Below the pieces are notes generated by a model. The model was not told the DNA's origin, ran no database searches, and saw nothing but the letters and a program-made list of their open reading frames with translations. From assembly GCA_014804425.1 (NCBI GenBank), contig JAAUZV010000014.1:437121-501120 (forward strand): a stretch of 64,000 nt of DNA. The letters run 5' to 3'. Shown one piece after another: positions 3,240 to 50,341 of this stretch. Both the position numbers and the translations under genes were made by a program. Positions within the stretch are counted from its first letter, which is position 1, and every line of letters begins with the position of its first letter. Source of the DNA: Lachnospiraceae bacterium. GTDB lineage: Bacteria; Bacillota; Clostridia; Lachnospirales; Lachnospiraceae.

Positions 3240-4469
3240 TTACCAAAACGCATGATCGCCGATGATCAGATCGCTGCTGCGGATGGTCTTTACATTAAAA
3301 TGAAGCACATCGCCGACATTGCTGACGCCGCTCATCGCCTCGATCGCCGCCTGGGTACACGAATCCGGCACACCGCGCTGCAGCGCTTTCGCCACTCTGC
3401 CCGTCATGGCAGGCGTAAACTGTCCCGGCGCATAAATAACGCCCGATATTGTATTAGGGTACGCCGGATGCTTCACGCGGTTCATCACGACCGCGCCGAC
3501 CGCAAGCTGTCCCTCATACGTCTGATTGCCCGCCTCACACCAGATCAACGCCGCTAAAAGCTGCAGATCACTGTAGTTCGCCTCGACATTAGCCTGCTCC
3601 TCGCTGAGCGCCGCCCTGCGGGCTGCCGCATCCTCCTGTGCCCTGCGTCTTGCTTCCGCCTCAGCCGCTTCGCGCTCCGAGATCTCCTCCATGGTCTCTC
3701 CCGTCGCGCATAACAGATCTACCGTTACATATTGGGCGGACACATAGCCCTCGCTCCCGTCATAAGCGACCTTGAGCCATTCGCCCATATCTTCATAAAT
3801 ATCGACAATATCCCCCTCGGCAAGCAGCGCGTAAATACCCGCATCCGTAGACGCCGCCTTGCGGATGCGCAGTCCGCTCTCATTTACCGTTGCCGTCCAT
3901 CTTCCTACCTGCGCCAACGCTTCCTGCGCTTCCTCATCAAATAACAGATAATCGTTCTTCGCCCATCCGACAACGCTGCCCGAACGAAGAAGCGTCCATC
4001 CGTCACCCTCCTCTAAAATCTCACCGTAACAGTCCGCATACAGCCTGCCGATGATCGGTGCATCCTCGCTTGCCGATGCCCGGACATTCAGTGTGCTCTG
4101 CACATTTGTCATAACAAATGCGTTTTGACTCTCTGCGGCATCCGCCGCCTCCGGTCCATCTGCCGACGCCTGTTCCTGCGCTGCTTCTAAAGACGCCTGC
4201 GTCCCCCTCGTCTCTATGCCGGACGGGGTCCCCTGCGCTCCTCCTGCTTCGGAGTTTAATGAAAGCTCCGTATCCAAGATCAGTGCCACACCGGCGCTCA
4301 GCGCATCTGTATCCAGCATCAGCTCAGCTCCCGCCTGCAGCGCATCCACATGTTCGGTGCCGCCCGCCATGACTGTTCTCGTTGAAGCGGCTACATACGC
4401 CAAGATCACAACAACCGCCATGATCATCGCAGCCGCGCGGGACAGTCTTCCGCCTGTTGCTCCCTTCAT
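3240..4469 (-). CDS. Secreted cell-wall hydrolase, SleB/CwlJ-type catalytic domain with SH3b-like repeats
   Basis: ATG at 4469 with GGAGG upstream, followed by a signal/anchor helix. Two SH3b-like segments are visible (LNVRASASEDAPIIGRL..., GLRIRKAASTDAGIYALL...). The C-terminus LLAALIWCEAGNQTYEGQLAVGAVVMNRV...GVIYAPGQF is typical of the Hydrolase_2 family. Confidence 0.8.
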   Translation of the reverse strand: MKGATGGRLSRAAAMIMAVVVILAYVAASTRTVMAGGTEHVDALQAGAELMLDTDALSAGVALILDTELSLNSEAGGAQGTPSGIETRGTQASLEAAQEQASADGPEAADAAESQNAFVMTNVQSTLNVRASASEDAPIIGRLYADCYGEILEEGDGWTLLRSGSVVGWAKNDYLLFDEEAQEALAQVGRWTATVNESGLRIRKAASTDAGIYALLAEGDIVDIYEDMGEWLKVAYDGSEGYVSAQYVTVDLLCATGETMEEISEREAAEAEARRRAQEDAAARRAALSEEQANVEANYSDLQLLAALIWCEAGNQTYEGQLAVGAVVMNRVKHPAYPNTISGVIYAPGQFTPAMTGRVAKALQRGVPDSCTQAAIEAMSGVSNVGDVLHFNVKTIRSSDLIIGDHAFW

Positions 4470-6424: not shown

Positions 6425-6550
6425 CGAACTTGTCCGGTTGAGCGAACTTGTTCGGTTAAGCGAACTTGTTCGGTTAAGCGAACTTGTTCGGTTAAGCGAA
6501 CTTGTTCGGTTAAGCGAACTTGTTCGGTTAAGCGAACTTGTTCGGTTTAT
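6425..6550. repeat. Tandem repeat, 7 copies of an 18-bp unit (CGAACTTGTTCGGTTAAG), five perfect and two degenerate end copies
   Basis: Counted directly: units start at 6425, 6443, 6461, 6479, 6497, 6515 and 6533. Each unit contains the inverted repeat CGAAC-TT-GTTCG. The array lies between the pfkA terminator and the methyltransferase start. Confidence 0.97.
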
Positions 6551-7619: not shown

Positions 7620-7740
7620 CGTTCTACCATGCCCTTTCCGTCGTCCGTTTTATCTTTTATCTATTGAAGTCATTTTAATCTATTTTGAAACATTTTTCAA
7701 TACAGGCGGACATAAAAATGTGCAGGAGTTCTTTATCTAT

Positions 7741-7817
7741 ATAGGAAATTTCCCAGTCCCAGAAGAATTCGCCTTTGGCGAATTCTTCGAAAGAATGGCG
7801 CAAGGCGCCATTCTTTT
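7741..7817. repeat. REP-like element: tail motif ATAGGAAATTTCCCAGTCCC plus two stacked hairpins
   Basis: Hairpins AGAAGAATTCGCC-TTT-GGCGAATTCTTC and AAAGAATGGCGC-AA-GGCGCCATTCTTT. The reverse complement of 7741-7775 matches 15380-15414 at 31 of 34 aligned positions after one single-base indel. Confidence 0.85.
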
Positions 7818-11301: not shown

Positions 11302-11614
11302 GCGCGCCTCCTTTGTGTTCTTGACCGCCATGAGTGCCTGCAGCACAGGAAAATCATTGCGTGGTATACCAATCTCATTTCCGTTCAGTATAACATAATT
11401 TGAGACAGAAAAAAAGAGTTCCCGTCAGCGGCAACCCGGATATCCCCCGTATACGCTCACGCAGAAATTTTGTGCCGGTCATGTTCCGCATGATTCTCCC
11501 CGCATCAAAAAGCATTCATAGAGAAAGGGGGATACCTTTTGGCATCTCCCCCTCTCCGTTTCCCATATCGCAAAATCACACGCTCTGTGATTGGCTGATC
11601 CGCATCCAAAGCGC

Positions 11615-12397
11615 TTACTTTGCAACGATCGCATAAGCACCGAGTCCGGCATTGACCGCAAAAGTGACCGTGTCCGGATCTGTATCCAAATCTTCAAGAA
11701 CCGTTATCACCCCGCCCTCCTGTACGCAAAGCACGGAATAGGTTAGGGATGTATCCGCCGATCTCGGCAGACCGGCCACAAACGCAATATTTCCGTCCGA
11801 CAGTGTCACCCATTTACCATCTTCTCTGGCTCCCAGTTCAATATACAGGCATGCGGTAATGTCCGCTCCCATCGCATCCGCCGCCGCATGAATACTCGCC
11901 ATGGCATTCACACTTTTGTTCGGATCAACGTCATAAATAATAATTGCCGGTGTCTGCTCTTGCGTTAATCCAAGTGCCGTCCTTACATCCGCCTCCGATG
12001 TACTGACTGCCGTGCCGAGCACGCCCGTCGCACCATACACTCCTCCGACAGAGGTTTTTATCTCTGTACCTGCTACACTTACAAGGGCGTTTTCAACCTT
12101 GGTCATTCTCTGTTCAAAGGTTGGCGTCGGTGTCGGTGCCGCTGTCGATGCCCCGCTCGCAACTACCGGGGCGCTTTCCGACGAATCAGCTCCCGTTAAC
12201 GGTGTCGGTGTCGCTGTCGGTGTCGGCGTCGCTGTCGGCGTCGGCTCGGGGGTCTCTGTCGGATCATCGTTCGTTGTCATCACCCCTTCCGGCTGTTCAT
12301 TGTCTGTGCCCGTTGCACACACCAGCAATGTAGAAGCTATCACCATTGTTGCCGCAAACATTACAGCCACCGCTTTTTTCATTGTTCCAAACTTCAT
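11615..12397 (-). CDS. Secreted/lipoprotein-like protein with Thr/Pro-rich linker, function unknown
   Basis: ATG at 12397 with AGGAGGAG upstream. Signal peptide MKFGTMKKAVAVMFAATMVIASTLLVCATG, then linker TETPEPTPTATPTPTATPTP, then a 170-aa C-terminal domain I do not recognise. Confidence 0.6.
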   Translation of the reverse strand: MKFGTMKKAVAVMFAATMVIASTLLVCATGTDNEQPEGVMTTNDDPTETPEPTPTATPTPTATPTPLTGADSSESAPVVASGASTAAPTPTPTFEQRMTKVENALVSVAGTEIKTSVGGVYGATGVLGTAVSTSEADVRTALGLTQEQTPAIIIYDVDPNKSVNAMASIHAAADAMGADITACLYIELGAREDGKWVTLSDGNIAFVAGLPRSADTSLTYSVLCVQEGGVITVLEDLDTDPDTVTFAVNAGLGAYAIVAK

Positions 12398-12654
12398 TCT
12401 CTTTCTCCTCCTGCCTACTATTTGGGGACGATACATCCTTCCGTCTCAAAACCGGCGCGATTATCATAAAGGATAGCCGCAGCAAAAGCATCCCCGCAAA
12501 AAAGATATGTCTGTTGCCGTCTTATGTATTCCCATCCGCACCAACATTGCGAATTTCCGTTTTATTTTATGCTCTTTTTCGGTAATATTGGGTCATGCTC
12601 TCTTCTATTTCGCTTTTTTCATTCAGTCCCGGCAGAAAAGCAGCGGAATGATGA

Positions 12655-12690
12655 CAAAAAAATCGCTGTCAGCTCTGCGCTGACAGCGAT
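12655..12690 (-). terminator. Rho-independent terminator of metK
   Basis: Minus strand reads ATCGCTGTCAGCGCAGAGCTGACAGCGATTTTTTTT: a 12-bp stem with a T-run. Confidence 0.85.
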
Positions 12691-12712
12691 ATCTCTTTTG
12701 GATATTTATTGA

Positions 12713-13900
12713 TTACAAATATTTCTTTAACACATCGACCTTATCAAGCTGCTCCCACGGCAGATTTAAGTCGTTTCGCCCGAAGTGTCCGTACGCCGCG
12801 GTCTGCTTGTAAATCGGTCTGCGCAGATCGAGCATTTTGATGATGCCCGCAGGTCTTAAATCAAAATTGTCGCGGATGATACCGACCAGCTTCTCCGAGC
12901 TTACTTTTCCCGTGCCGAACGTATCGATCATGACGGATGTCGGCTCCGCTACACCGATCGCGTAGGATAACTGAATCTCGCACTTATCGGCAAGTCCCGC
13001 CGCCACGATATTTTTTGCGACATAGCGCGCCGCATACGCCGCGGAACGATCGACCTTCGTGCAGTCCTTCCCCGAAAATGCACCGCCGCCGTGTCTTGCG
13101 TAGCCGCCGTAGGTATCCACAATGATCTTGCGTCCCGTCAGACCTGCATCGCCGTGCGGTCCGCCGATCACAAAGCGTCCCGTCGGATTGATAAAGTATT
13201 TCGTATTCTCATCGATCAGTTCCTTCGGAAGCACCGGATCAAACACATACTTTTTGATGTCCTCATGAATCTGCTCCTGAGAAACCTCCTCGTCGTGCTG
13301 TGTGGATAACACAACCGCCTCTAAGCGGATCGGCTTATTATTTTCATCATATTCCACGGAGACCTGACTCTTGCCGTCCGGTCTTAAATAAGAAAGCGTC
13401 CCGTCCTTTCTCACCTTGGTAAGCTGTAATGCCAGCTTGTGCGCAAGTGAGATCGGGTACGGCATATATTCCTCAGTCTCGTTTGTCGCATAGCCGAACA
13501 TCATACCCTGATCGCCCGCGCCGATCGCTGCAAGCTGCTCGTCGGACATTTTCGCCTCTCTTGCCTCCAGCGCCTTGTCTACACCCATCGCAATATCGGG
13601 AGACTGTTTGTCCAGTGCGACCATGACCGCGCAGGTATTCCCGTCAAATCCTGTCTTTGCATCATCATAACCGATCTCGTTCACCGTTTTTCTGACGATC
13701 GCCGGAATGTCCAGATTTGCCTTTGTCGTGATCTCGCCCGTAACAAGCACAAACCCTGTACATGCGGCCGTCTCACAGGCAACGCGGCTCATCGGATCCT
13801 GCTCCATGCAGGCGTCTAAGATGGCGTCGGAAACCGCATCGCAGACTTTGTCGGGATGTCCCTCCGTAACGGATTCGGACGTAAATAAGTGTTTTTCCAT
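12713..13900 (-). CDS. metK: S-adenosylmethionine synthase
   Basis: [47 protein letters not shown]. Preceded by a SAM-I riboswitch. Confidence 0.97.
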
Positions 13901-13972: not shown

Positions 13973-14102
13973 ATCCTCTTATTGTTCGATCAACCGCAGA
14001 TGATGTGCGGTCAACAATATTCGCTCAGGTTGGCACCTTCCGGTTATGGGGTTGCCGTGGCTTCACAGATCCTATGTATCTCCACCACTCCGAATAAGAG
14101 AA
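13973..14102 (-). ncRNA. SAM-I (S-box) riboswitch aptamer
   Basis: Minus strand reads CTCTTATTCGGAGTGGTGGAGATACATAGGATCTGTGAAGCCACGGCAACCCCATAACCGGAAGGTGCCAACCTGAGCG...AATAAGAGG. This contains the conserved S-box blocks (CTCTTAT..AGAG/GG.GGAG, GAAGCC..GCAACC, GGTGCCAA, closing AAGAG) and sits upstream of metK. Confidence 0.9.
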
Positions 14103-14262
14103 TATTCCCCGTAAAACGAGGGGTTCAATATGGAATTTTCCTATCTGCTATTAACATACATCAAACGTCTGTCCATGTCAATGGATTTGATTGACAATAT
14201 TGTAAAAAAATTTTATAATTTTACTATCACTATTGTTACTTTTGACCGAAGGGAGGTACGCT

Positions 14263-15336
14263 ATGAAAAGACTGAGCACGCAGGAATTAGTCCCGGGAAT
14301 GGTCACGGCGGAGGACGTCTATAGCTACAGCGATCAACTGATCCTTCCCAAAGGACTTACCTTAACAGACAAAACCATTACAAAGCTTGAATTTTACTCC
14401 ATCCTCTCTATCCGTATTGAGGATGATCGGAATGAATCATTAGGGAGCCCGTCTCCCAGCCTTTCCGTTTCCGAGCATGTGCAGAGCAGCCCGGAATTTC
14501 AGGCATTCAAGCGCTATTTTGATGAATCCTTGGCCGGCTTCAAAAGCAGTCTGAACGATATTGTTGAGAACAACGCACCGATCGATACGGACGCTATGCT
14601 GGAACAGGCATTATCCCTGGTTCAGACCAAAAAGGCTTCCTTCAACGTATTTACCATGCTGCAAAGTATGCGCTCCTACGATGATCAGACCTATGCACAT
14701 TCCATGAACGTCGCCCTGATCTGCAATATTTTTGCCCGGTGGCTTCTTTTTTCACAGGAGGATATTGAGCTGGCGACGCTGTGCGGCATGCTGCATGACA
14801 TCGGCAAACTCGTCATTCCCGATTTTATCATTAAAAAGCCTGCGAGACTGACTGAGCAAGAGTATTCCATCATTAAAACGCATCCGTATGAAGGCTATAA
14901 GATCCTGCGCGCGCAGAACGTGAATGAGCATGTCTGCAACGCCGCATTAATGCATCACGAGCGCTGTGACGGTACCGGTTATCCGCTCGGACTCGTCGGC
15001 AATAAGATCGACAAATTCGCAAAGATCGTTTCCATCGCTGACGTATATGACGCCATGACAAGCGCGCGTATCTACCGCGGTCCGCTCTGCCCGTTTGAGG
15101 TGATCGATATTCTCGTTTCCGAGGGACTGCAGAAATATGACCCCGGCTATTATATGACTTTTATGAACAATGTCGTAACAACCTACCTGTTAAACCGCGT
15201 CCGCCTAAGCGACGGCAGGGAGGGCGAGGTTGTCTTCATCAATCCGAACAACCCTGCACGGCCGACCGTACGCGTGGGAGATACCTTTGTAGATCTCTTC
15301 AAAGAGACGGAGCTGTCCATTGTAAAGATTGTATAA
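14263..15336 (+). CDS. HD-GYP domain protein (putative c-di-GMP phosphodiesterase) with an uncharacterised N-terminal domain
   Basis: ATG at 14263 with GGGAGG upstream. Motifs HSMNVA...LHDIGKLVIP...HHERCDGTGYPLGL (HD and GYP). Confidence 0.85.
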   Translation: MKRLSTQELVPGMVTAEDVYSYSDQLILPKGLTLTDKTITKLEFYSILSIRIEDDRNESLGSPSPSLSVSEHVQSSPEFQAFKRYFDESLAGFKSSLNDIVENNAPIDTDAMLEQALSLVQTKKASFNVFTMLQSMRSYDDQTYAHSMNVALICNIFARWLLFSQEDIELATLCGMLHDIGKLVIPDFIIKKPARLTEQEYSIIKTHPYEGYKILRAQNVNEHVCNAALMHHERCDGTGYPLGLVGNKIDKFAKIVSIADVYDAMTSARIYRGPLCPFEVIDILVSEGLQKYDPGYYMTFMNNVVTTYLLNRVRLSDGREGEVVFINPNNPARPTVRVGDTFVDLFKETELSIVKIV

Positions 15337-15523
15337 AAAAGATTTGCGCGCGGCGCAAATCTTTCAAAGAATTCGCCTTTGGCGAATTCTTTCGGGACTG
15401 AGGAATTTCCTATAAGTTAAAAAAGAACGCTGCGCGTTCTTTCGAAGAATCGCTAAAGCGATTCTTCTAGGACTGAGAAAATTCCTGTTTAGTAAAAAAA
15501 GAGTGCATAGCACTCTTTTTTTA
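15336..15523. repeat. Array of five stacked hairpins with two copies of the GGACTGAG-N-TTCCT tail motif (REP-like)
   Basis: Hairpins at 15336-15365, 15366-15393, 15419-15444, 15445-15467 and 15494-15522. All have the form AAAGA-stem-loop-stem-TCTTT with different stem cores. Tail motifs are GGGACTGAGGAATTTCCTATA (15394-15414) and TAGGACTGAGAAAATTCCTGT (15468-15488). Confidence 0.9.
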
Positions 15524-15560
15524 TTTTTCTGTCTCTATCACAGACATCCTCCGCCTCATC

Positions 15561-16364
15561 TCAATTTCCCGTGCTATAATACCGCTTCACGCTTACTCGC
15601 CAGAACAGATAGGCAGCGGCGTATACAACGATCCCCACAAACGGCGCGATATAAATATAAATCACAGGATAATCAGCCATATCCTCTTTGCGCAAAAGAT
15701 ACTGCGCCGGAAAGTAATTGACGAATGCAAACGGGACAACATAGATCAAGATCCCCTGTATCAGCTTGTGATATATACTGATCGGATAACCTGCAAATTT
15801 TCGCATATTCCAATAAAAAATATCACGGATACTGTTAGTCTCCACAAAGTAGAAGCACAAAGACGAAAAAATAATGAACATACCGCCCTGTATCAGGATT
15901 CCACCGATGATCGCGCCGATATAATACAGGATCGTGACAAAGTCCCAATGAATCCCAACCCTGCCTGCCGATATGACAAACAGAAGGATTCCCAGTGTCC
16001 CGTGTCCTGCGGACGCGATCAGGTCGGCATTATTCAAGATCAGCTGTAACAGCAGGCTTCTTGGTCTGACGAGAAGCCGGTCAAATCTTCCCTCCCTGAT
16101 CGTATCCGAAAACCGCCTCAAATCCGCAAACAGGGATACCACAAACGCATAGGTCAAAAAAAGAATACTATACAAAAACAGCATTTCATTGACATTCCAG
16201 TCGTTAATCCTGTCAAACTTGAGCAATGCCAAATAAATCGCGATAATATTTGCGGATTCCCTGATGAATACCGCAAGTGTGGCAACCAGCGAATCTACCC
16301 GGTATTGCATCCTCGTATGGATACTCATCTTCAATGATTGGAGTACAACCCTGATCTCACCCAT
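15561..16364 (-). CDS. ABC-2 family transporter permease (uncharacterised ABC system, permease 2)
   Basis: ATG at 16364 with GGGAGG upstream, 6 nt after the preceding stop. Six predicted TM helices, and the RFDRLLVRPRS motif typical of the ABC-2 membrane family found with COG4586-type ATPases. Confidence 0.75.
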   Translation of the reverse strand: MGEIRVVLQSLKMSIHTRMQYRVDSLVATLAVFIRESANIIAIYLALLKFDRINDWNVNEMLFLYSILFLTYAFVVSLFADLRRFSDTIREGRFDRLLVRPRSLLLQLILNNADLIASAGHGTLGILLFVISAGRVGIHWDFVTILYYIGAIIGGILIQGGMFIIFSSLCFYFVETNSIRDIFYWNMRKFAGYPISIYHKLIQGILIYVVPFAFVNYFPAQYLLRKEDMADYPVIYIYIAPFVGIVVYAAAYLFWRVSVKRYYSTGN

Positions 16365-16369
16365 CTCGC

Positions 16370-17158
16370 TTAACCTCCCTGCACCACAAGCTTTTTTACG
16401 CCTCTTTTCCAAAACAGGTTTGCTATGATCCCCAGAATCACAATCCAAAGTATCTGAACCGCAATGCCCGAAAGGATTTCCGACCCGCTCAGCTCGCCGA
16501 GATAAATCCTCACCGGCGTAAAATAAATGGACTCAAACGGCGTAAAAGAAATGATTTTTCTAAGCGCTGCCGGCATAAACCATAACGGCAGTAACGTTCC
16601 CGCCATAATATTGACAAATACATTTTTGATCGTTATGATTCCCCACACACTAAAAAGCCAAAAGCTCCATGTCTGGATCATAAAGCTGATCAGCCACAGG
16701 ATCAGATAACCGAATGCCACGCTGATAAACATCGCAATCAGACCGGGTGCGCTTTTCGGGGGACACAATTTCGTGTGCAGCATTGTAAAAAGCAGCGCTG
16801 GCAGGAAATGAAAAACCAGCTTAAATACCCCTTCGCCGATATTCTCCGCCAGCATCCGCAGCAGGAAGCTGACCGGTTTCAAAAATTCATTCGTGATGCT
16901 TCCGTCATGAATTTTATGTTCCAAAAACATTTCATTAAAATCAAATGCATTTGACAGTCCCAGTGTAATGACAAAGCTCGTGGCTACCATGCGGTAAGAG
17001 ATTCCGTCCACCTCCGCCGCGCCGCCATATAGCGCTTTATAGATGCACAGGTAGACCACGATCGTGATCGCCGTATTGACAATTCCCATGAAAAAATCTA
17101 ATCTGTACGCCATTTTATCCTGAAATTTCTTGACGGCAAATTCCACATACGCTCTCAT
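16370..17158 (-). CDS. ABC-2 family transporter permease (permease 1)
   Basis: ATG at 17158 with GGAGGGG upstream. Multi-TM protein in operon with two ABC ATPases. Confidence 0.75.
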   Translation of the reverse strand: MRAYVEFAVKKFQDKMAYRLDFFMGIVNTAITIVVYLCIYKALYGGAAEVDGISYRMVATSFVITLGLSNAFDFNEMFLEHKIHDGSITNEFLKPVSFLLRMLAENIGEGVFKLVFHFLPALLFTMLHTKLCPPKSAPGLIAMFISVAFGYLILWLISFMIQTWSFWLFSVWGIITIKNVFVNIMAGTLLPLWFMPAALRKIISFTPFESIYFTPVRIYLGELSGSEILSGIAVQILWIVILGIIANLFWKRGVKKLVVQGG

Positions 17159-17310
17159 ACATTGCCCCTCCATGCTTTCGCAAATCCGTGCGGAGAATGC
17201 AATGCGAATTTGTTTGCTTTGCATTCTCCTGTGTGAGAAAGGTTCCGCTTAAGCGGAACCGTAGAAAATCTTCGCGAAACGGCCCTTGCCGTGAGCGTTA
17301 GATTTTCTTC
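17159..17310 (-). other. Structured intercistronic spacer (nested stem-loops) between ATPase and permease genes
   Basis: On the transcript, an outer stem GUGUGAGAA/UUCUCACAC encloses hairpins GAAAAUCU...AGAUUUUC and GGUUCCGC-UUAA-GCGGAACC. A further hairpin GGAGAAUGC...GCAUUCUCC follows. Confidence 0.6.
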
Positions 17311-18279
17311 TCACACTGTCTCCTTTGCTGTCGGATCATCCAGAACAAGCCTTCCCTCGTAAATGTCGCGGATGATCCCGTCTATTTCCGGTTCACAGAT
17401 GGAAATATCCTTGATATTTTTTTGTGCAAAGAGATTTTCCATCACGGTATTCATAGGTGTCTCGCTGATATCAAAGGTCCGCGTCTCCTTCTCATCATTT
17501 TCAAGCAGTATTTCGACGGTCTTGGAATTGGCATATTTATTTTTGATCTGATCAATGCTTCCGTCATAGATCTTTTTTCCCTTATCAATGATGATCAGTC
17601 GGTCACAGACCTTCTCGATATCCTGCATATCATGCGTGGTGAACAGGATGGTTGTCTGTTCTTTTTCATTGATATACCGGATAAATTCCCGTATTTTTTC
17701 TTTTGCCACCACATCCAGTCCGATCGTCGGCTCATCCAAAAATACAATTTCCGGTGAATGGAGGAGTGCGGCAACAATATCCCCCCGCATCCGCTGTCCC
17801 AGCGATAGCTGCCTGACGGGCTGGTTGATAAAATCCTCCATCTCCAGCAGCTTCGAAAACAGGCTGAGGTTTTTTTCATATTTCTCCTGCGGGATTCTGT
17901 AAATGAATTTCATCAATTCAAAGCTTTCAATCAACGGCAGATCCCAGTTCAGCTGCGTTTTCTGCCCGAAAACAACACCGATATGTTTCACATACTGCTT
18001 TCGCTGCTTATACGGAATGTAGCCTCTGATCGTTACATCCCCCGCATCCGGATACAGGATGCCGGAAAGAATTTTGATCGTCGTGGATTTCCCCGCTCCG
18101 TTCGGGCCGATGAATCCGACGATCTCGCCCCGTTTGATCGAAAAGCTCACCGTGTCAACCGCTTTTTTGATCTCATAGCTTCTGTTAAAAAGATATTTCA
18201 GCGAAGCGGTCATGCCTTTCCCGCGTTTTGCGATCCTATAATATTTTTTGATGTCCCCTACCTCTATGATGTTTTCCAT
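17311..18279 (-). CDS. ABC transporter ATP-binding protein (second ATPase)
   Basis: Walker A GPNGAGKST, signature LSLGQRMR, Walker B IVFLDEPTIGLD, H-loop TTHDM, and a C-terminal extension of about 80 aa. Confidence 0.9.
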   Translation of the reverse strand: MENIIEVGDIKKYYRIAKRGKGMTASLKYLFNRSYEIKKAVDTVSFSIKRGEIVGFIGPNGAGKSTTIKILSGILYPDAGDVTIRGYIPYKQRKQYVKHIGVVFGQKTQLNWDLPLIESFELMKFIYRIPQEKYEKNLSLFSKLLEMEDFINQPVRQLSLGQRMRGDIVAALLHSPEIVFLDEPTIGLDVVAKEKIREFIRYINEKEQTTILFTTHDMQDIEKVCDRLIIIDKGKKIYDGSIDQIKNKYANSKTVEILLENDEKETRTFDISETPMNTVMENLFAQKNIKDISICEPEIDGIIRDIYEGRLVLDDPTAKETV

Positions 18280-19193
18280 TCGCGCCCTCCGTATATCTTC
18301 TTGATCGTACCTTCTAAATCCGGTTCATACAAACGAATATCACCGATCTTGCTTTTTTTCATCAGATGCTTCAAAATCTGGGTGGTTTCTATTTTTTGTT
18401 TATCATAGTCAATTGTGATCCGGTCAGACTCAATCCGGTATTTTTCCAAAGGAAGGTCTTCCAGATCGGGAAGCCCTTCCACAATCCTGACCTCCATCCG
18501 GTAATAGGGTGAAAACTCGCATATCATACGCTCTGCTTTCCCGTCAAAAATGATCTCACCCTCATGGAGCAAGATCACCCGATCGCAAAGCTTTTCCACC
18601 TCCGCAAGATGGTTGCTTGTGTAAATGATGGTCGCTTGTTTTTCTTTCCCGTCGGCTTCAAAAAACTGTATGATCTTATGCTTTATGGAAACATCCACAC
18701 CGATCAATACTTCATCAAGCAGTAATATCTGAGGCTCTGCAAGAAGAGCATATACCAGCTCGCATCTCATCCGCTCCCCGAGTGACAGATTTCCCGGTCT
18801 TAGATCCATAAACGCTCCGGTTTCAAAAATTTCCTGAAGCTGTTCCAGTCTTCGTGCAAATACGTGCGGATCGATCTGATACATGCTCATGCAGTTTTGA
18901 AGCGAAGCCTTTACCGTAAGCTCCTCCCATAATTGAGATCTCGTTCCCGATAAGTATACCAGTTCCCGAAGGGACTGATGATCTTCTATGATGCTTTCCT
19001 TTCCGCCGGTTCTGATAAATCCGGCATCCGGCTTTATCACTCCCGCTATAACATTCAGCAGCGTCGTCTTTCCTGCGCCGTTTAATCCGATCAATCCCAC
19101 ATGTTCTTTTTTCGCAACATGAAGGGATATGTTTTTTAACACGCTTTTATTTTTGAACGTTTTCGATACATCCTTTAATACGATCAGAAGCAT
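18264..19193 (-). CDS. ABC transporter ATP-binding protein (first ATPase, divergent Walker B context)
   Basis: Walker A GLNGAGKTT, signature LSLGERMR, Walker B ILLLDEVLIGVD (Val replaces the usual Pro), H-loop TSNHL. Overlaps the next ATPase gene by 16 nt. Confidence 0.88.
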   Translation of the reverse strand: MLLIVLKDVSKTFKNKSVLKNISLHVAKKEHVGLIGLNGAGKTTLLNVIAGVIKPDAGFIRTGGKESIIEDHQSLRELVYLSGTRSQLWEELTVKASLQNCMSMYQIDPHVFARRLEQLQEIFETGAFMDLRPGNLSLGERMRCELVYALLAEPQILLLDEVLIGVDVSIKHKIIQFFEADGKEKQATIIYTSNHLAEVEKLCDRVILLHEGEIIFDGKAERMICEFSPYYRMEVRIVEGLPDLEDLPLEKYRIESDRITIDYDKQKIETTQILKHLMKKSKIGDIRLYEPDLEGTIKKIYGGREWKTS

Positions 19194-19230
19194 TCACCGC
19201 CTTTTGCAAATTCTTCCCGACTGCGAAATC

Positions 19231-19259
19231 ACTATACGAAAAAAAATCCCGCACGTCAA
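19231..19259 (-). promoter_or_regulatory. Sigma-A-type promoter for the ABC genes (TTGACG-17-TATAGT), its -35 box lying in the loop of the upstream terminator
   Basis: Minus strand reads TTGACGtgcgggattttttttcgTATAGT, about 35 nt upstream of the ATPase ATG. Confidence 0.55.
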
Positions 19260-19271
19260 CGAGTGCGGGAT
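19238..19271 (-). terminator. Rho-independent terminator after the kinase gene
   Basis: Minus strand reads TCCCGCACTCGTTGACGTGCGGGATTTTTTTT. Confidence 0.7.
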
Positions 19272-19297
19272 AAACAACCTTTATTCAGGGACAAACC
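19267..19297 (-). promoter_or_regulatory. Candidate LytTR-regulator binding site (imperfect direct repeats, 21-bp spacing)
   Basis: Plus strand has GGGATAAACAACC at 19267 and GGGACAAACC at 19288, a 21-bp start-to-start distance. The proximal copy lies 8 nt upstream of the -35 box. Confidence 0.3.
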
Positions 19298-19333
19298 GTG
19301 TTCCCGTTACTTTCACACCGCGAACGGGAATTG

Positions 19334-20116
19334 TTATCCCAGCATCACGCTTACAATGAACATGCCGCCTTTCTCATAAATATCCATATCTCCCTCATAC
19401 TTCTGAACAATTGCCTTCATCTGCTTCATACCATATCCATGCCCCGGCTCTTCCTTGGAGGATGCCAATTCCGGATTCTCTCTTAAAACAGAATGGTCAA
19501 TGCTGTTCTTAACCGTTATCATGTCAAAGCCTTTCTTGGATGCGATGTCCACTTCCAGTTTTGGTGAATCGGAATCCAGCGCGCCGTTTACTGCATTGTC
19601 CAGCATATTATTCAGCAAGGAGGAAAAGTCCACGCTATCCATATAGGAAAACGGAAGATTTTCGATCTCGGCTTTGATCTCTATGCCCTTTTCTTTTGCC
19701 AGAGAGAGCTTCGTGTTGATGATATGACTTAACAGGGAATTGCCGACATTGACATAGGTATACATCCTGTTTAACTTGTCCAGAATCTCTCCCGCATACT
19801 GTTTGGCTTCTTCTGTTCTGTTTTCTTCCAGATACGAGAGAATCACCATCGTATGATTTTTCATATCGTGCTTTAACAGCCCGATCTGCTGTTGTATCCT
19901 CCGTATCTCGCCATCCATTTCCTGCTGTTTATCATAAGCATGCTCCATATCTGACAATCTCTTTTCCATATCCAGATTGTCCGCCACATACCGCGTGAGC
20001 AGCCTGTCCTGCTCCTCCTGTTTTGCTTTATCCTTCCGTTTTCTTTTGACTTCCTTCATCAACAATACTGCCAGTACGATGATGATTGCCACAAGAATGA
20101 TCTCCATATGCTTCAC
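19334..20116 (-). CDS. GHKL-type sensor histidine kinase (AgrC/LytS-class, HPK10-like) with a single N-terminal TM helix
   Basis: H-box LLKHDMKNHTMVI, N-box LLNNMLDNAVNG, G-box GHGYGMKQM. Only one TM helix (EIILVAIIIVLAVLLM). The GTG start at 20116 forms a GTGA overlap with the regulator stop; the ATG at 20107 is an alternative. Confidence 0.8.
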   Translation of the reverse strand: MKHMEIILVAIIIVLAVLLMKEVKRKRKDKAKQEEQDRLLTRYVADNLDMEKRLSDMEHAYDKQQEMDGEIRRIQQQIGLLKHDMKNHTMVILSYLEENRTEEAKQYAGEILDKLNRMYTYVNVGNSLLSHIINTKLSLAKEKGIEIKAEIENLPFSYMDSVDFSSLLNNMLDNAVNGALDSDSPKLEVDIASKKGFDMITVKNSIDHSVLRENPELASSKEEPGHGYGMKQMKAIVQKYEGDMDIYEKGGMFIVSVMLG

Positions 20117-20829
20117 GCTTTCCGAAGTATTTCCAGAATCTTTTTTCTTACCTCTTTTTCATAGCTCCTGCCAACAGGGAGCGCAACGCACTCCTCTCCG
20201 GCTCTCAATAAGATTTCATTATTGCTCATTTTTTCAATATATTCCGCATGGATCAGATAACCTTTATGGCATCGGATAAATCCCTTTCCCTGAAGCTCAT
20301 TTTCCATATTTGTCATTGTCTCTCTGACGCGGATCGTATCCTCTCTGCGTCTTAACACAAGATAATTTTTTTCCGCCTCTACATAAATAATGTCTTTGAT
20401 GCGCACCCGGATCAGCTCCTGACCCTTTCGGATCACTACCTCCTGCTTGTTTGCAAGTAATTCTTTTTGGACCCGCTTTCCCACTTCATCCATTTCCTGA
20501 TCCATATGCGTTTTTCGGATAAATCCAAACGGTCTGTACGCAAAAGTCTGATACACTAATGCATCGTGACTCGTTATGAAGATCAGGATTGTCGGCAGAC
20601 CCTGCTCCTTGATATATTCCGCGATCTCCATCCCGTTATGATAGGGCATATCGATATCTAAAAACAATACGTCTATCGTTTCCCTTTGCAGGTATTCCAT
20701 CAATTCTCTCGGATCATCAATACCGGTATATCGTGCCGATATGTCATTTTCATCAAAACAATTCCGAACCTTTTTTAAGATTTGATCCAGGATTTCTTTT
20801 TCATCATCACATACTACGATATGGTACAT
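20113..20829 (-). CDS. LytTR/AlgR-family response regulator
   Basis: Receiver domain (VCDDE...LFLDIDMP) plus a LytTR DNA-binding domain (IIYVEAEKNYLVLRRREDTIRVRETMTNMENEL...FIRCHKGYLIH). Confidence 0.9.
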   Translation of the reverse strand: MYHIVVCDDEKEILDQILKKVRNCFDENDISARYTGIDDPRELMEYLQRETIDVLFLDIDMPYHNGMEIAEYIKEQGLPTILIFITSHDALVYQTFAYRPFGFIRKTHMDQEMDEVGKRVQKELLANKQEVVIRKGQELIRVRIKDIIYVEAEKNYLVLRRREDTIRVRETMTNMENELQGKGFIRCHKGYLIHAEYIEKMSNNEILLRAGEECVALPVGRSYEKEVRKKILEILRKA

Positions 20830-20848
20830 TTTTGTCTCCTGTCATCTG

Positions 20849-20875
20849 AAAAGAGTGCATAGCACTCTTTTTTTA
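20849..20875. repeat. 27-nt hairpin AAAAGAGTGCATAGCACTCTTTTTTTA, identical to 15497-15523
   Basis: Exact 27/27 identity in direct orientation. Its last 3 nt form the GH43 stop codon (TAA on the minus strand). Confidence 0.95.
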
Positions 20876-22225
20876 CTTTGTAAAGACAAACTCTTTCAGT
20901 TCAAACAGGCATCGGTTCCGAAAAGGTTCTCCCGTCCAGTCAGACGGATACTCTGTCAAAATCCGAAAAAACAGACTGTGTCTTCCGGTTACCGCCTTCA
21001 CCCTTTCCGTGACCGCGCCGCTTTCTCTGCCGATCTTAAGCCGCCCGATCTCCTCCCCATCCTTTCCGTCGAGCAGCACCTGCAGAATACTGTCACAGCC
21101 CATACCATTGATATTTACGGAAAGCTCCATCGTTCTGCTGCCGAAATCGTCTCCGAAATCAAAGTATTTATATCCGATCACGCATCCTTCCGTCACATTT
21201 GTCACAACACGCTCAAATACATTTTTCTCGGTCACAAACGCACCGCCCTCCAGCACACAGGCGATTTCTGCCGGCGTGATCTCATACGGATTCAGGGCAT
21301 CTTCAAATCCCAAAGACGTCATCTCCACCGCGGGAATCGTTCCGTCCGAAAGAATCTCAATCTTCTCGACACAGGCACGCCGGGACATAATGGTACCGTT
21401 GGTCATCCGATGGTAAAAAACATACCACTGCCCGTTGATCTGCGCAACAGAGCCATGATTGTTTCCGCCCGGATATTCCACCCCATTATCTATGATATAT
21501 CCCCGATAAGTAAACGGTCCCGTCGGGCTGTCCGAAGTGGCATACGCAAGCCTGCTGCCGCGCTTCGGCGAATAGATGAGATAGTAGGTATCCCCGATCT
21601 TTCTTGGCGAGCACGCTTCATAAAACAGCGCGTCCGTCTCCGTGAATCCCCCTTCCTCCCGTTTCTCGCAGGGAATGATATGCTCGATGCAGCTCCCGTC
21701 AATGACCTCATACATACTGCCGCTGTCGATCTGCGCCATAAAAGAACGTTCAAATCCGCAGTATATGTACGTTCTGCCATCATCATCCACCAGTACTCCC
21801 GGATCGATAAACCAGCCGTTGCAGCAGATTTCGTCAGAAATCGTATAGTGATACTTATTCAACAGCCGAAACGGTCCCTCCGGTTTGTCGCTCACCGCGA
21901 CACAGCCTATGGAACCTATGATATAGGCGTAAAGATAATATTTTCCGTCCTTTTCCACAACATCCGGCGCATAGAGATAGTGGGAACGGTCTGTCCAATC
22001 CGTATCAGACTCATGATCAAAAGTCTGCTGCGTGCGAAAGATGTCGCCGTGGCACACCCACTGATTCAGATGATCAAGCGGCGCGCTCCAGCATTTTAAC
22101 ACATGATCGCAAAATTTCACTGATCCCGCATTGTCGTGCGAACCATAGATATAGATTCTGTCACCGAACACTCTCGGCTCGCCGTCCGGAATGTATTCCC
22201 AGAGCGGCAGATATGGATTTGGCAT
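20873..22225 (-). CDS. Glycoside hydrolase family 43 (beta-xylosidase/alpha-L-arabinofuranosidase-like) with C-terminal beta-sandwich domain
   Basis: N-terminal NPYLPLWEYIPDGEPRVFGDRIYIYGSHD, then YAPDVVEKDGKYYLY and GWFIDPGVLVDDDG, typical of a GH43 five-bladed propeller. No signal peptide. Confidence 0.8.
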   Translation of the reverse strand: MPNPYLPLWEYIPDGEPRVFGDRIYIYGSHDNAGSVKFCDHVLKCWSAPLDHLNQWVCHGDIFRTQQTFDHESDTDWTDRSHYLYAPDVVEKDGKYYLYAYIIGSIGCVAVSDKPEGPFRLLNKYHYTISDEICCNGWFIDPGVLVDDDGRTYIYCGFERSFMAQIDSGSMYEVIDGSCIEHIIPCEKREEGGFTETDALFYEACSPRKIGDTYYLIYSPKRGSRLAYATSDSPTGPFTYRGYIIDNGVEYPGGNNHGSVAQINGQWYVFYHRMTNGTIMSRRACVEKIEILSDGTIPAVEMTSLGFEDALNPYEITPAEIACVLEGGAFVTEKNVFERVVTNVTEGCVIGYKYFDFGDDFGSRTMELSVNINGMGCDSILQVLLDGKDGEEIGRLKIGRESGAVTERVKAVTGRHSLFFRILTEYPSDWTGEPFRNRCLFELKEFVFTK

Positions 22226-31813: not shown

Positions 31814-31871
31814 AAAAGAATGGCGCAGAGCGCCATTCTTTCAAAAGAAATGCTTCCGGCATTTCTTTTTT
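31812..31871. terminator. Two stacked bidirectional hairpins between the hemolysin-III gene and galE
   Basis: AAAAAAGAATGGCGC-AGA-GCGCCATTCTTTC and AAAAGAAATGC-TTCC-GGCATTTCTTTTTT. The first stem is the same as in the hairpin at 7790-7817. Confidence 0.75.
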
Positions 31872-39950: not shown

Positions 39951-40448
39951 TTATTTCCTACCATATACCTTCTGTATTTCTTTGTTCTTCATTATCACAA
40001 TCTTATCAATAAACCGTGTATGTCTTGAAAAGTAAAGCGCTTCTATCTGTTTTCTGATTTCATCATCCGATAGCGGACAATCTGTAACACTAAAAATAAA
40101 GCTTGAAGCTTGTTTCCTTTTTTTCGACACCACATTGTAAAACAAGTCTTTGCTTCTCCCGGTTGGTGATTTCAAGTCAAACCGCTCACCATCTATCAAA
40201 TAATCCGGGGTCTGTACACCTTGCGGAACCATTATCTGCGGCACAAATTCAACGTATTTCCCATCCACCTTGTATGTCGTGCCATTGACCGCATATTCTT
40301 GCCTTTCGATAACGCTTCCTTTTATTCCTGCACATTTTGTCCATTCATTTGTAATATCCATGAAATCTATTTTATCACTTAGACCCACTTCCTGCAATCC
40401 CGGCGTGTCACCGACTACAAAAGCCTGCTTCCGCCGTCGCGGGCGCAC
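39951..40448 (-). pseudogene. Orphan C-terminal fragment resembling the nuclease-like tail domain of phage minor-capsid / polyvalent proteins
   Basis: The frame opens with GTG directly after an in-frame stop and has no RBS. YKVDGKYVEF...TPDYLIDGERFDLKSP...ASSFIFSVTDCPLSDDEI...IDKIVIMKN matches, from memory, a tail module seen on large phage/ICE proteins. The segment is visibly AT-richer than its flanks and lies next to a tRNA. Confidence 0.4.
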
Positions 40449-47654: not shown

Positions 47655-47919
47655 AGTTACCCGCCTTAACACTTAGAATGTCCCCTGCCGTTCGTGGGGA
47701 CGACACAAAAAGTATTTTAGCGTAAAACCGAACGTTTGACAATGCGGGCGGCTGTTTTTTGTTCCCGAATTTCTTACTTTTTTATAAAAAAAGAACCAAC
47801 TCGGATTTTGTCAAAACAACCGGAATCCTGTTTGACGCGCTTGTACTTTCCTATTTAATGTGATAAACTTTGTTATATTTTTACACAAGCGCGGCGAACG
47901 AACCGCGGAGGAGGCAGGA

Positions 47920-48924
47920 ATGAGCAAACAGACGGACAACTATTTGGCGCTGGCACCGGCATTGGGATTACGTTACGATCCCTTGAATCAGGTGCTGTAC
48001 GGTCAAAGGAACGGCTATGATATCCTCATTTACGCAGCAAATCCCGGACAGCCCTATCTGCTGACCATACATACCGGGGCAAGAAATATGTTCGGTGCGA
48101 ATCTTACCAAGGAACAGACCAAAGAGCTGACCAAATCTGTAAAACCCATCCTCACATGCCTGCAGAACGGCAATGACATTGTGATAACGGTAAATGCTGC
48201 GACAGGCGCCAAGGTCTCTTTCGAGAAGCTGACCGCAAACACAGGGGAAGCGCTAAACGCATTGACCTCCTTCCTGTACGGAAAGGGATTTGCCCCCTGC
48301 TGTAGTATTTGCGGAATGCAAAAATTTGTTGCGCCCCACGAGCTGGAAGGGAGATATTATCACCTATGCCCGGATTGTGAGACATCCATGCGCACAAGGA
48401 TCGCTGCACCGAAGCCGCAGAAACAGGAGAATGTCATCGGCGGCATTGTAGGCGCACTGCTCGGCTCCCTGATCGGCGTCTTCTGTATTGTGCTGCTCTC
48501 GCAGCTGGGCTATGTAGCGGCGTTCTCCGGGGTTGCCATGGCCATAGGCGTGCTGGCCGGCTATGAGAAGCTGGGCGGTAAACTGACCAAAAAAGGCATT
48601 GTCATCAGCATTGTGATCATGCTGGGCATGACGTTTGCCGGAAATCAGCTTGACTGGGCAATCTCCCTCTACACCAAAGGCGGCGGTTCTAAGTTAGGTC
48701 TTACGATTTTTGACTGTTTTCGAATGGTTCCCTGGGCCATTTCCAACGGAGTGATCAAGAAAAGCACTTACATATTTAACCTTGTCCTGATCTACCTGTT
48801 TTTGTTGGTGGGCGCGATTCCGACGATCAACGCCAAGATCAAGGATAAGCAGAAGATCGGCCGCATGGTGAGAATCGGTTCCGTCGGCCCGTTCAACAAC
48901 AACAGCAGCAACTATATGCAGTAA
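47920..48924 (+). CDS. Membrane protein with N-terminal soluble domain, Cys4 zinc-ribbon (CCSICG...CPDC) and about 5 TM helices, function unknown
   Basis: ATG at 47920 with GGAGGAGG upstream. Motifs read from the translation. Confidence 0.6.
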   Translation: MSKQTDNYLALAPALGLRYDPLNQVLYGQRNGYDILIYAANPGQPYLLTIHTGARNMFGANLTKEQTKELTKSVKPILTCLQNGNDIVITVNAATGAKVSFEKLTANTGEALNALTSFLYGKGFAPCCSICGMQKFVAPHELEGRYYHLCPDCETSMRTRIAAPKPQKQENVIGGIVGALLGSLIGVFCIVLLSQLGYVAAFSGVAMAIGVLAGYEKLGGKLTKKGIVISIVIMLGMTFAGNQLDWAISLYTKGGGSKLGLTIFDCFRMVPWAISNGVIKKSTYIFNLVLIYLFLLVGAIPTINAKIKDKQKIGRMVRIGSVGPFNNNSSNYMQ

Positions 48925-48941
48925 AAACTTTCCGCAAACAG

Positions 48942-48980
48942 AAAAATACCGATGCAGAATATTTTCTGCACCGGTATTTT
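48942..48980. terminator. Bidirectional terminator
   Basis: AAAAATACCGATGCAGAA-TATT-TTCTGCACCGGTATTTT, with one A/C mismatch. Confidence 0.7.
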
Positions 48981-49014
48981 GAATAAACAGTCTGATTGCT
49001 TTATCAGCGTTTCC

Positions 49015-50118: not shown

Positions 50119-50125
50119 AAGCCCT

Positions 50126-50341
50126 CTAGTCCTCAAATTCTGTGATTCTGTCGGCGATTCTGCCATAACGGAATCTGGCCAGCTCGTTCTTTTTTAATAC
50201 GTCCTCTTCCGTGCCGTGATACTGGCAGCGGATACAGTAGTATTCTTTTTTATCGCGGTCGTAAAACATATCAATATCAAGGTCTCGCATAAAGCAGGAC
50301 GGACACCGGTAATTTAATTTGCCTTTTCCAGATTGAGCCAT
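50126..50341 (-). CDS. Small Cys4 zinc-ribbon protein (71 aa)
   Basis: CPSC...CIRC. GGAGGT lies 9 nt upstream of the ATG, inside the upstream gene. The gene overlaps the upstream gene by 28 nt and ends 7 nt before the GH53 start. Confidence 0.6.
   Translation of the reverse strand: MAQSGKGKLNYRCPSCFMRDLDIDMFYDRDKKEYYCIRCQYHGTEEDVLKKNELARFRYGRIADRITEFED

Follow-up and report, generated by a model that had tools for sequence, protein, structure and literature searches.

A LytTR two-component and ABC-2 transporter block probably relocated to a terminator hairpin within a Lachnospiraceae chromosome

Fork stalling and template switching (FoSTeS) and microhomology-mediated break-induced replication (MMBIR) are forms of microhomology-mediated template switching. 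In homology-facilitated illegitimate recombination (HFIR), the anchors that have been described are usually hundreds of base pairs of ordinary homology on incoming linear DNA. A further precedent comes from enterobacteria, in which Shyamala et al. reportedly found, in 1990, repetitive extragenic palindromic (REP) sequences at the join-points of duplications. HFIR is a known process with one homologous end and one illegitimate end (PMC3240628). In this report, we consider a 64,000-nucleotide stretch of contig JAAUZV010000014.1 from a Lachnospiraceae bacterium (GCA_014804425.1, positions 437,121 to 501,120 of the forward strand), hereafter “the window”, in which six genes for a LytTR two-component system and an ABC-2 transporter lie between two identical hairpins. 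We conclude that this block, hereafter “the cassette”, was probably a resident of the chromosome that underwent a single relocation, from a site behind a GH53 gene to the terminator of a GH43 gene, by recombination anchored on a hairpin and without a dedicated element enzyme. The kinds of recombination that come into question (REP-mediated, homology-facilitated illegitimate and template-switching) are known; the case is a new documented instance of them.

The hairpins share the 27-mer AAAAGAGTGCATAGCACTCTTTTTTTA, which has two exact copies on the plus strand of the window, at 15497-15523 and 20849-20875, in the direct orientation described in an earlier note on this DNA. The match grows to 31 nt when one mismatch is allowed. 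No copies arose in 100 shuffles, and the sole further match is the left copy’s own palindromic reverse. Both copies are perfect A-tract/stem/T-tract hairpins, with stems of 14 bp (left) and 10 bp (right); both score as terminator-like, and each is the dominant helix in the fold of the surrounding RNA. Pfam upholds the earlier assignment of the six genes between them as a regulator, a kinase, two ATPases and two permeases, all on the minus strand. The block is flanked by the GH43 glycoside hydrolase gene (20873-22225, minus strand), whose terminator appears to have taken in the cassette, and by an HD-GYP-type (HD_5) gene (14233-15336, plus strand) that is convergent with GH43 in relatives lacking the insertion.

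These relatives were reached through GH43 proteins 98% and 95% identical to that of the window, which led to contigs of related lineages. In three such lineages (~93-95% nucleotide identity), the site holds GH43, one hairpin and the HD-GYP gene, and no cassette; this is the empty site that the earlier note had envisaged. In GCA_014804755.1 (JAAUZE010000008.1; loci L003, L004 and L103), the convergent HD-GYP gene follows GH43 by 107 nt, and the sole hairpin, TAAAAAAAGAGTGC-TAG-GCACTCTTTTTTTA, adjoins the GH43 stop. The site is also empty in GCA_964655525.1 (CAZZNE010000009.1; L038), with the hairpin loop TAT, and in the P0002 lineage (L005-L010), with the loop ATA. The hairpin adjoins the GH43 stop codon in every lineage compared, and BLAST alignments of the empty loci with the window end exactly at 20849 on the GH43 side. 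The right copy (20849-20875) can thus be identified as GH43’s own intrinsic terminator, since L004/L103, L038 and L006-L010 each have a single orthologous hairpin immediately behind the GH43 stop. Its last three letters (TTA, 20873-20875) are the GH43 stop codon on the minus strand, and its T-tail is shortened to 4 T at the start of the cassette. The earlier description of this copy was therefore right about the stop codon but not about the spacing: the hairpin ends 19 nt before the regulator ATG and ~8 nt before the ribosome-binding site (RBS; GGAG), rather than 20 nt before the RBS.

The left copy, with its full 14-bp-stem palindrome at 15493-15523, is the last of five perfect hairpins, as had been seen by eye (15338-15364, 15366-15392, 15422-15442, 15444-15467 and 15493-15523). 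Between the HD-GYP stop and this hairpin, an intergenic array (15337-15492, plus strand) consists of two tandem ~75-nt units, each with two perfect hairpins and, in the minus-strand reading, an AGGAAAYTTC..CARTCCC box. The empty site of L038 holds most of this array. The array is thus ancestral to the spacer and was not made by the insertion, to which it is unrelated. Within one metagenome series, L009/L010 and L006-L008 have two different sequences after the second hairpin of the GH43 spacer array (last ~40 nt), which suggests a further polymorphism at this spacer. GH43 homologs of ~81% identity (P0035) lie in an unrelated context and were uninformative, and no exact-protein record was found for the 367-aa HD-GYP open reading frame (ORF) of the window.

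Where, then, is the cassette in the relatives? The nearest homologs of its regulator (94-95% identity) belong to the same relatives whose GH43 site is empty. In them, a GH53 gene is followed by a six-gene block that is 93-95% nucleotide-identical to window 15495-20842, and the block in turn by a convergent gene of ~331 aa (loci L016, L018, L019/L147, L020-L023, L153-L155 and L156). The corresponding place in the window, 28 kb from the present position of the cassette (former site at ~48.9 kb), is an empty 90-nt spacer (48925-49014) between GH53 (49015-50166, minus strand) and a convergent 354-aa ORF (47860-48924, plus strand). L016 6515-9748 corresponds to window 52231-48998 and L016 15205-20717 to window 48883-43378; the window has no cassette between these segments. 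Thus, the GH43 site is filled and the GH53 site empty in the window, whereas the reverse holds in GCA_014804755.1, where both sites are on one contig. The empty GH43 site and the presence of the cassette elsewhere in relatives bear out the proposal that the cassette was inserted at a terminator hairpin. A metagenome scan with the regulator yielded six loci only, none of them in a new arrangement. Aligning the empty GH53 site globally with the filled locus gave spurious blocks, and this alignment was discarded.

The GH53 locus and its surroundings vary in other ways among these genomes. The segment between the GH43-side and GH53-side homology is ~11 kb long in the window (~32.1-43.4 kb) and ~28 kb in GCA_014804755.1. 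In the latter genome, comparison of L016 (~15205) with L018 (15275-15385) reveals that ~110 nt between two GGnGGAGC repeats are missing; the cassette has thereby lost its terminator hairpin and the convergent ~331-aa ORF its 3′ end. Upstream of the regulator, L016 (9895-9945), L153, L154 and L155 carry a 49-nt hairpin-bearing insertion flanked by a duplicated AGGAT. It sits at the stem/loop boundary of the CATTAGGAT hairpin and is absent in L018 (9925-9960). Judged from its sequence, the insertion of this unit resembles the behavior of a miniature inverted-repeat transposable element (MITE).

The composition of the block might seem to indicate a foreign origin. Its GC content is 0.443; for the five cassette genes that are in the ORF set, the mean is 0.437, compared with 0.512 ± 0.033 for the 44 other ORFs of the window (~2.3 standard deviations below the other genes), and one of those 44 has a GC content at or below the highest cassette-gene value. 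At third codon positions, the values are 0.52 for the cassette and 0.60 elsewhere in the window. The interior is thus indeed more AT-rich, as the earlier note had it. On this basis (0.44 vs. 0.51), and given a third genomic context for the cassette in relatives of ~80% identity, one could argue that the block is a foreign island newly gained from an unrelated donor. We regard such horizontal acquisition as highly improbable. The cassettes of the sister lineages are 93-95% identical, in line with the divergence of their flanks, and all copies have the same low GC. Indeed, cassette divergence equals flank divergence throughout (92-97%), with the window, JAAUZE and CAZZNE about equidistant. The low GC is thus an old trait of the block, and the reading of AT-richness as a mark of foreign DNA fails, the cassette being no more diverged from relatives than its flanks are. 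These comparisons point to the six-gene block as a long-standing resident of this Lachnospiraceae species complex. The locus serves as a caution: direct repeats, low GC and an empty site can together imitate a genomic island or a target-site duplication even though the block is an old resident.

The junctions are most easily followed in the cassette’s own orientation. The ancestral GH43 site reads ...CAAAG-T-A6/7-GAGTGC-loop-GCACTC-T6/7-A-flank. The native 3′ end of the cassette reads ...GGCAGAAAA-T-A6-GAGTGC-GGG (L018) or AAG (L156)-GCACTC-T6-A..., such that the native cassette terminators (L018 15301-15333, loop GGG; L156 ~1586-1614, loop AAG) have the same GAGTGC stem. The cassette therefore already ended in a terminator of this kind at its old locus, and the earlier suggestion that insertion had duplicated the hairpin must be given up. 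This property also distinguishes the locus from a transposon or insertion sequence (IS) with a target-site duplication, as the repeat was at the cassette end before insertion (L018, L156). Further differences from such elements are the lack of a transposase, all six ORFs of the block being regulator, kinase, ATPase or permease, and a search for terminal inverted repeats joining the inner block ends found none; the long pairs reported are the palindromic hairpins themselves.

In the window, the GH43 side reads CAAAG-T-A7-GAGTGC-TAT-GCACTC-TTTT and continues, across the junction, with CAGATG-ACAGGAGAC-AAAA-ATG; the HD-GYP side reads GACAGAAAAA-T-A7-GAGTGC-TAT-GCACTC-T7-A-CTAAACAGG. The left hairpin is a hybrid, with a flank orthologous to that of the native cassette terminator on the cassette side and one orthologous to that of the GH43-site hairpin on the HD-GYP side. 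Junction 2 (HD-GYP side) thus lies within 13-27 nt of hairpin homology. Junction 1 (GH43 side) is an illegitimate join, in which the GH43 hairpin and 4 T are connected to the regulator leader at a T/TCA microhomology with at most 3 nt shared. A 19-nt junction segment, CAGATGACAGGAGACAAAA (20830-20848, minus strand), includes the RBS and marks where the resemblance to the native 5′ leader begins; BLAST homology of the cassette to relatives stops at 20841-20842. In five relatives, the native leaders read ...TGgTAAAAT-GAAAATATTA-TCAnnnnn(A/G)CAGGAGAC..ATG. The window leader keeps this sequence only from TCA onward (~-20), without the conserved extended -10 box (TGnTAnAAT) and all that lies upstream of it. 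This upstream alignment confirms that the regulator has lost its native promoter region, which would leave it without a promoter of its own.

The hairpin loops are also informative. They vary between lineages and between native hairpins (TAT, TAG, ATA, GGG and AAG), whereas the two window copies are identical, which argues that the event was recent. Two hairpins of the same family predate the event and two follow it; their identity, loop included, stems from crossover or conversion within the hairpin. At the donor site (~48935-48941; breakpoints set by eye against L018 and L156), the T-tract of the GH53 terminator is joined to TTTGCGG..., which in L156 is the sequence after the T-tract of the cassette terminator. 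The donor loss thus runs from T-tract to T-tract and is ~45-50 nt longer at the 5′ end than the inserted segment. We also note that, in a minimum-free-energy fold of window 20827-20890 (minus strand), the 3′ end of GH43 (TTTGTCT) can pair with the regulator RBS region (AGACAAA) in an outer helix around the terminator. This helix could occlude the RBS, or it could be a coincidence.

A chimeric join at a short repeat must be considered for any such structure, particularly here, where the sequence comes from a metagenome and breaks in related contigs are frequent near these hairpin arrays. Several facts render an assembly artefact extremely unlikely. The junction between GH43 and the cassette is base-for-base equal in two independent assemblies (an ENA k119 contig and a Logan contig). 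The repeat, at 27-31 nt, does not exceed the assembler k-mers used, which counts against a chimera. Further, Junction 1 has sequence that the native locus lacks and neither site retains the promoter region, which a chimera cannot yield, and the GH53 site is independently empty.

The polarity of the event deserves separate attention. Were the GH43-linked arrangement ancestral, recombination between the hairpin repeats would have released the cassette, and its arrival at the GH53 locus would date to the relatives’ ancestor. Recombination between direct repeats leaves exactly one hairpin, as is found at the empty sites, and the star-like lineages leave the event unrooted. However, ~50-100 nt of conserved sequence, including an extended -10 box, would then have had to be gained upstream of the GH53-linked copy. 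At least five sampled GH53-linked lineages stand against one strain, and the identical hairpins of the window, as opposed to the varied loops elsewhere, indicate a recent event. We thus hold this reverse polarity to be unlikely. Relatives of ~80% identity were tried as outgroups; in them, the cassette is in a third context (SpoIIID/MatE ... guaA) and without a similar hairpin, and hence they do not polarize the event.

How could two unrelated loci come to share a hairpin? The hairpin core, AAAGAGTGCnnnGCACTCTTT, has more than 119 matches spread over many phyla (including Haloplanus, cyanobacteria and Mycoplasma), with matches on at least three contigs of GCA_014804755.1 and at least eight in another Lachnospiraceae metagenome-assembled genome. 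Because the core is generic across phyla, exact-core matches are no evidence of relatedness. The earlier note had allowed that the 27-mer might be merely an abundant terminator repeat, with no association to the cassette boundaries and no compositional difference in the block. In part, this is so: the hairpins belong to a common terminator/REP-like family, with several copies per related genome, but the GC content of the block does differ from that of the other window genes. None of the 119 hairpin-containing loci examined has a second bracketing pair, i.e., two copies around genes. In a stem census of seven related sequences (the window and six loci from two relatives, ~151 kb), the recurring stems were GAGTGC (7 copies), GAACGC (5) and ATTTGC (3), with TTCGCC, TGGCGC and others also present. 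The hairpins, perfect and 21-27 nt long, are built on few stems with variable loops and occupy non-orthologous intergenic sites, often paired 1 nt apart beside an AGGAAAYTTC..CARTCCC box. The resulting ~75-nt units of a hairpin pair and box differ in copy number between strains and are present in several Lachnospiraceae species. The existence of such a dispersed family explains the 13-27 nt of homology between two unrelated loci.

These hairpins thus resemble the REP palindromes and bacterial interspersed mosaic elements (BIMEs) in that few sequence types occupy many non-orthologous intergenic sites, often in arrays, and their behavior, as read from the sequences, is REP/BIME-like. The ~75-nt units seem to constitute an undescribed family of this sort. 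The parallel with the enterobacterial rearrangements is close in some respects: short extragenic palindromes that double as terminators provide homology between distant loci, and mosaics or arrays between convergent genes vary in copy number among strains. The differences are that the host is a Firmicute, that the stems and box motif are unrelated to the enterobacterial ones, and that a whole two-operon block was relocated rather than tandemly duplicated, with only one junction in the repeat. Nothing relevant emerged from a search of the literature for REP elements in Lachnospiraceae, and Rfam had no match at the hairpins or arrays, yielding only an S-adenosylmethionine (SAM) riboswitch and sub-threshold chance matches. 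Examples of the ~75-nt units lie just after gene terminators at window 15337-15492, 7740-7816 and 31815-31869 and at L004 18489-18554 and 19740-19781; further ones are at L072 1035-1105, L117 ~3336-3420 and L141 ~3843-3925.

The association of the block with dispersed hairpins raises the possibility of a non-autonomous integrative element, akin to a cis-mobilizable element (CIME) or a MITE, whose att or end site would be the hairpin and whose mobility would be supplied in trans, from elsewhere in the genome, by a site-specific recombinase or a hairpin-specific HUH/Y1 enzyme (REP-associated tyrosine transposase [RAYT] or IS200/IS605-type). The 27-nt direct repeats with a single copy at the empty site are in keeping with this idea, as are the strain-variable copy number of the hairpin units, at least one 49-nt hairpin insertion with a 5-nt duplication, and the location of every donor and target breakpoint but one at hairpin T-tracts. 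Several observations nonetheless make it improbable. At the GH53 locus, the cassette has a hairpin at its 3′ end only and none upstream; Junction 1 cuts the hairpin tail and promoter, unlike a conservative site-specific exchange; and the ~80%-identity relatives hold the cassette without such a hairpin. Further, no recombinase was found in the 64 kb, nor a second bracketed pair among the hairpin loci. The block is like attL/attR integrative elements and CIMEs in lying between identical direct repeats, of which the empty site has one core copy, and in encoding no recombinase itself. It differs from them in that no integrase was found in the window, the repeat is absent 5′ of the cassette at the GH53 locus, and one junction is non-conservative. 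Nor does it resemble an integron cassette: it has no attC architecture, no integrase was found, its repeat takes the form of a perfect terminator hairpin of 10-14 bp flanked by A/T, and an internal promoter lies among its six genes. In all, among the ORFs scanned (those of the cassette, the flanks and elsewhere in the window), none was an integrase, transposase or reverse transcriptase, which agrees with the earlier note as to the first two, and a RAYT (Y1 HUH) transposase was likewise not found in the window.

We therefore return to relocation of a resident block as the preferred explanation and propose the following course. In the ancestral state, the block would have followed GH53, with its own extended -10 promoter and its own GAGTGC-stem intrinsic terminator. 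The segment from ~20 nt upstream of the regulator start through this terminator would then have been placed in the GH43 terminator, 28 kb away, presumably by the general replication and repair machinery, with no need of a dedicated element enzyme. Two routes may be envisioned. In the first, of the MMBIR/FoSTeS type, synthesis through GH43 would stall at the hairpin and T-tract, re-prime by microhomology on the regulator leader 28 kb off, copy to the cassette terminator and return through hairpin homology; the donor copy would afterwards have been lost by a microhomology deletion. In the second, which is HFIR-like, breaks at structure-prone hairpins would free the block, which would be reinserted through homology at the hairpin alone, its other end being joined illegitimately. 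The donor could here have been a sister lineage; the divergence pattern fits either the strain’s own copy or an unsampled sister lineage. As a result of either route, the two-component genes would now depend on read-through of a GH43 terminator weakened to U4 from U6-7, and the ABC operon would keep its own promoter.

The two routes have their respective precedents. The likeness to HFIR (PMC3240628) is that one junction lies on a homologous anchor and the other is illegitimate, with 1-3 nt of microhomology. The differences are that the anchor here is a hairpin of 13-27 nt and that the donor is most simply the same chromosome. With FoSTeS/MMBIR, the locus would have in common the copy-paste of a distant segment and breakpoints at structure-forming, T-rich sequence with little or no homology at one end; it would differ in that the donor copy is also missing, which calls for a second deletion event, and the mechanism is in this case inferred. 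Excision as a circle followed by Campbell integration was down-weighted, because excision from T-tract to T-tract would bring along the promoter region, which is absent at the new site.

The shape of the inserted segment admits one more origin, namely an RNA template. A reverse transcriptase would have copied the operon mRNA and switched template onto the 3′ end of the GH43 mRNA, and the cDNA would have entered the chromosome by recombination, through GH43 homology at one end and through the terminator hairpin at the other, creating a “retro-copied” operon. The block is in fact transcript-shaped: it starts 2-6 nt past the transcription start that the conserved extended -10 box predicts, ends at an intrinsic terminator, and is fused to the apparent terminated 3′ end of GH43 mRNA (hairpin plus U4). 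Against this origin, no reverse transcriptase was seen in the window, the internal terminator (19246-19271) would require read-through, and the loss of the donor is left unexplained. We judge it very unlikely.

Relocation by hairpin-anchored recombination has difficulties of its own. The event is documented only once, in a single strain; L001 and L002 match the window at 100% identity, and exact-protein look-ups of the window GH43 returned the same strain only (L001, L002). Its direction is derived from parsimony (at least five GH53-linked lineages vs. one), the missing promoter and the identical loops; it does not come from a rooted tree, because the lineages are related in a star-like way. 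For recombination that depends on RecA, 13-27 nt make a very short anchor. An intermediate carrying the cassette at both loci was not found. The ~45-50-nt difference at the 5′ end between the inserted and missing segments means that a single clean cut-and-paste is insufficient. Finally, a second cassette copy or a trans-acting enzyme may lie outside the 64-kb window.

If the relocation is accepted, it has several implications. The locus is a natural case, with reciprocal filled and empty sites, in which a multi-gene regulatory and transport module has changed its place on a chromosome, and the 64 kb yielded no enzyme of a mobile element. Terminator/REP-like hairpins appear to be rearrangement hot spots in Lachnospiraceae, and they may aid the shuffling of operons in gut Firmicutes. 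The move would also have rewired regulation, placing a promoterless two-component system behind a gene for xylan degradation.

The first of the relocated genes encodes a LytTR-family response regulator of 238 aa (20113-20829, minus strand; ATG at 20829) with Pfam Response_reg and LytTR domains; it is 94-95% identical to the GH53-linked orthologs P0121-P0124. It is followed by a GHKL (HATPase_c_5) histidine kinase gene (19334-20116, minus strand), whose product, according to Pfam and the translation, has a single N-terminal transmembrane helix and no extracellular or sensor domain. At 19231-19271 (minus strand), a terminator-like hairpin and T8 overlap a σ70-like promoter, TTGACG-17-TATAGT, for the ABC operon. 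This element separates the two-component genes from the ABC genes; the hairpin overlaps the -35 box of the promoter and is conserved in L018 (11627-11652). Upstream of it is an 8-bp inverted repeat, TTCCCGTT..AACGGGAA. The ABC operon comprises two ATPases with Pfam ABC_tran domains, of 309 aa (18264-19193) and 322 aa (17311-18279), and two ABC2_membrane_6 permeases (16370-17224, 262 aa in public gene calls; 15561-16448, called publicly as 267 aa at 15561-16364), all on the minus strand. The top NCBIfam match for both ATPases is the DrrA subfamily, under its cut-off. The left hairpin probably serves this operon and the HD-GYP gene as a bidirectional terminator.

Transporter-coupled, intramembrane-sensing two-component modules are known in the Bce-like type. 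The block, which on these annotations pairs a LytTR two-component system with an ABC-2 exporter operon that has its own promoter, is like them in placing a minimally anchored, sensor-less kinase beside such a separately promoted ABC exporter. This arrangement suggests that the transporter reports the signal. By analogy, the block may be a transporter-coupled module that answers an exported or toxic compound. It departs from the Bce-like modules in its regulator (LytTR rather than OmpR), its permeases (ABC2_membrane_6 rather than FtsX-type) and its number of components (two ATPases and two permeases). Peptide-quorum LytTR systems (Agr/Com/Blp) have a multi-pass HPK10 kinase of 5-7 transmembrane helices and a pheromone precursor gene, in contrast to the one-helix kinase of the block, in which no small peptide gene was found. 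The NCBIfam matches to AgrA and LytR are far under their cut-offs. The block would thus belong neither to the Agr/Com type nor to the Bce type.

Several other features of the window merit mention. A SAM riboswitch (RF00162, 63 bits; 13976-14100, minus strand) is upstream of an S-adenosylmethionine synthetase gene (metK, 12713-13900). The spacer between metK and the DNA polymerase III alpha gene (11347-12712) holds a 273-aa ORF with no Pfam match, and the same spacer in L004 (14085-15003) holds an NTP_transf_2/HepT toxin-antitoxin pair; the spacer is thus strain-variable. At 6430-6550, an intergenic 18-nt tandem repeat, AGCGAACTTGTTCGGTTA, is present in ~7 copies, each with a GAAC..GTTC palindrome. 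One public contig of the window strain ends at this repeat; at the orthologous place, L004 has a hairpin-plus-box unit instead. Lastly, a small ORF of low GC (0.41) at 39951-40448 (minus strand) encodes a CdiA C-terminal toxin domain.

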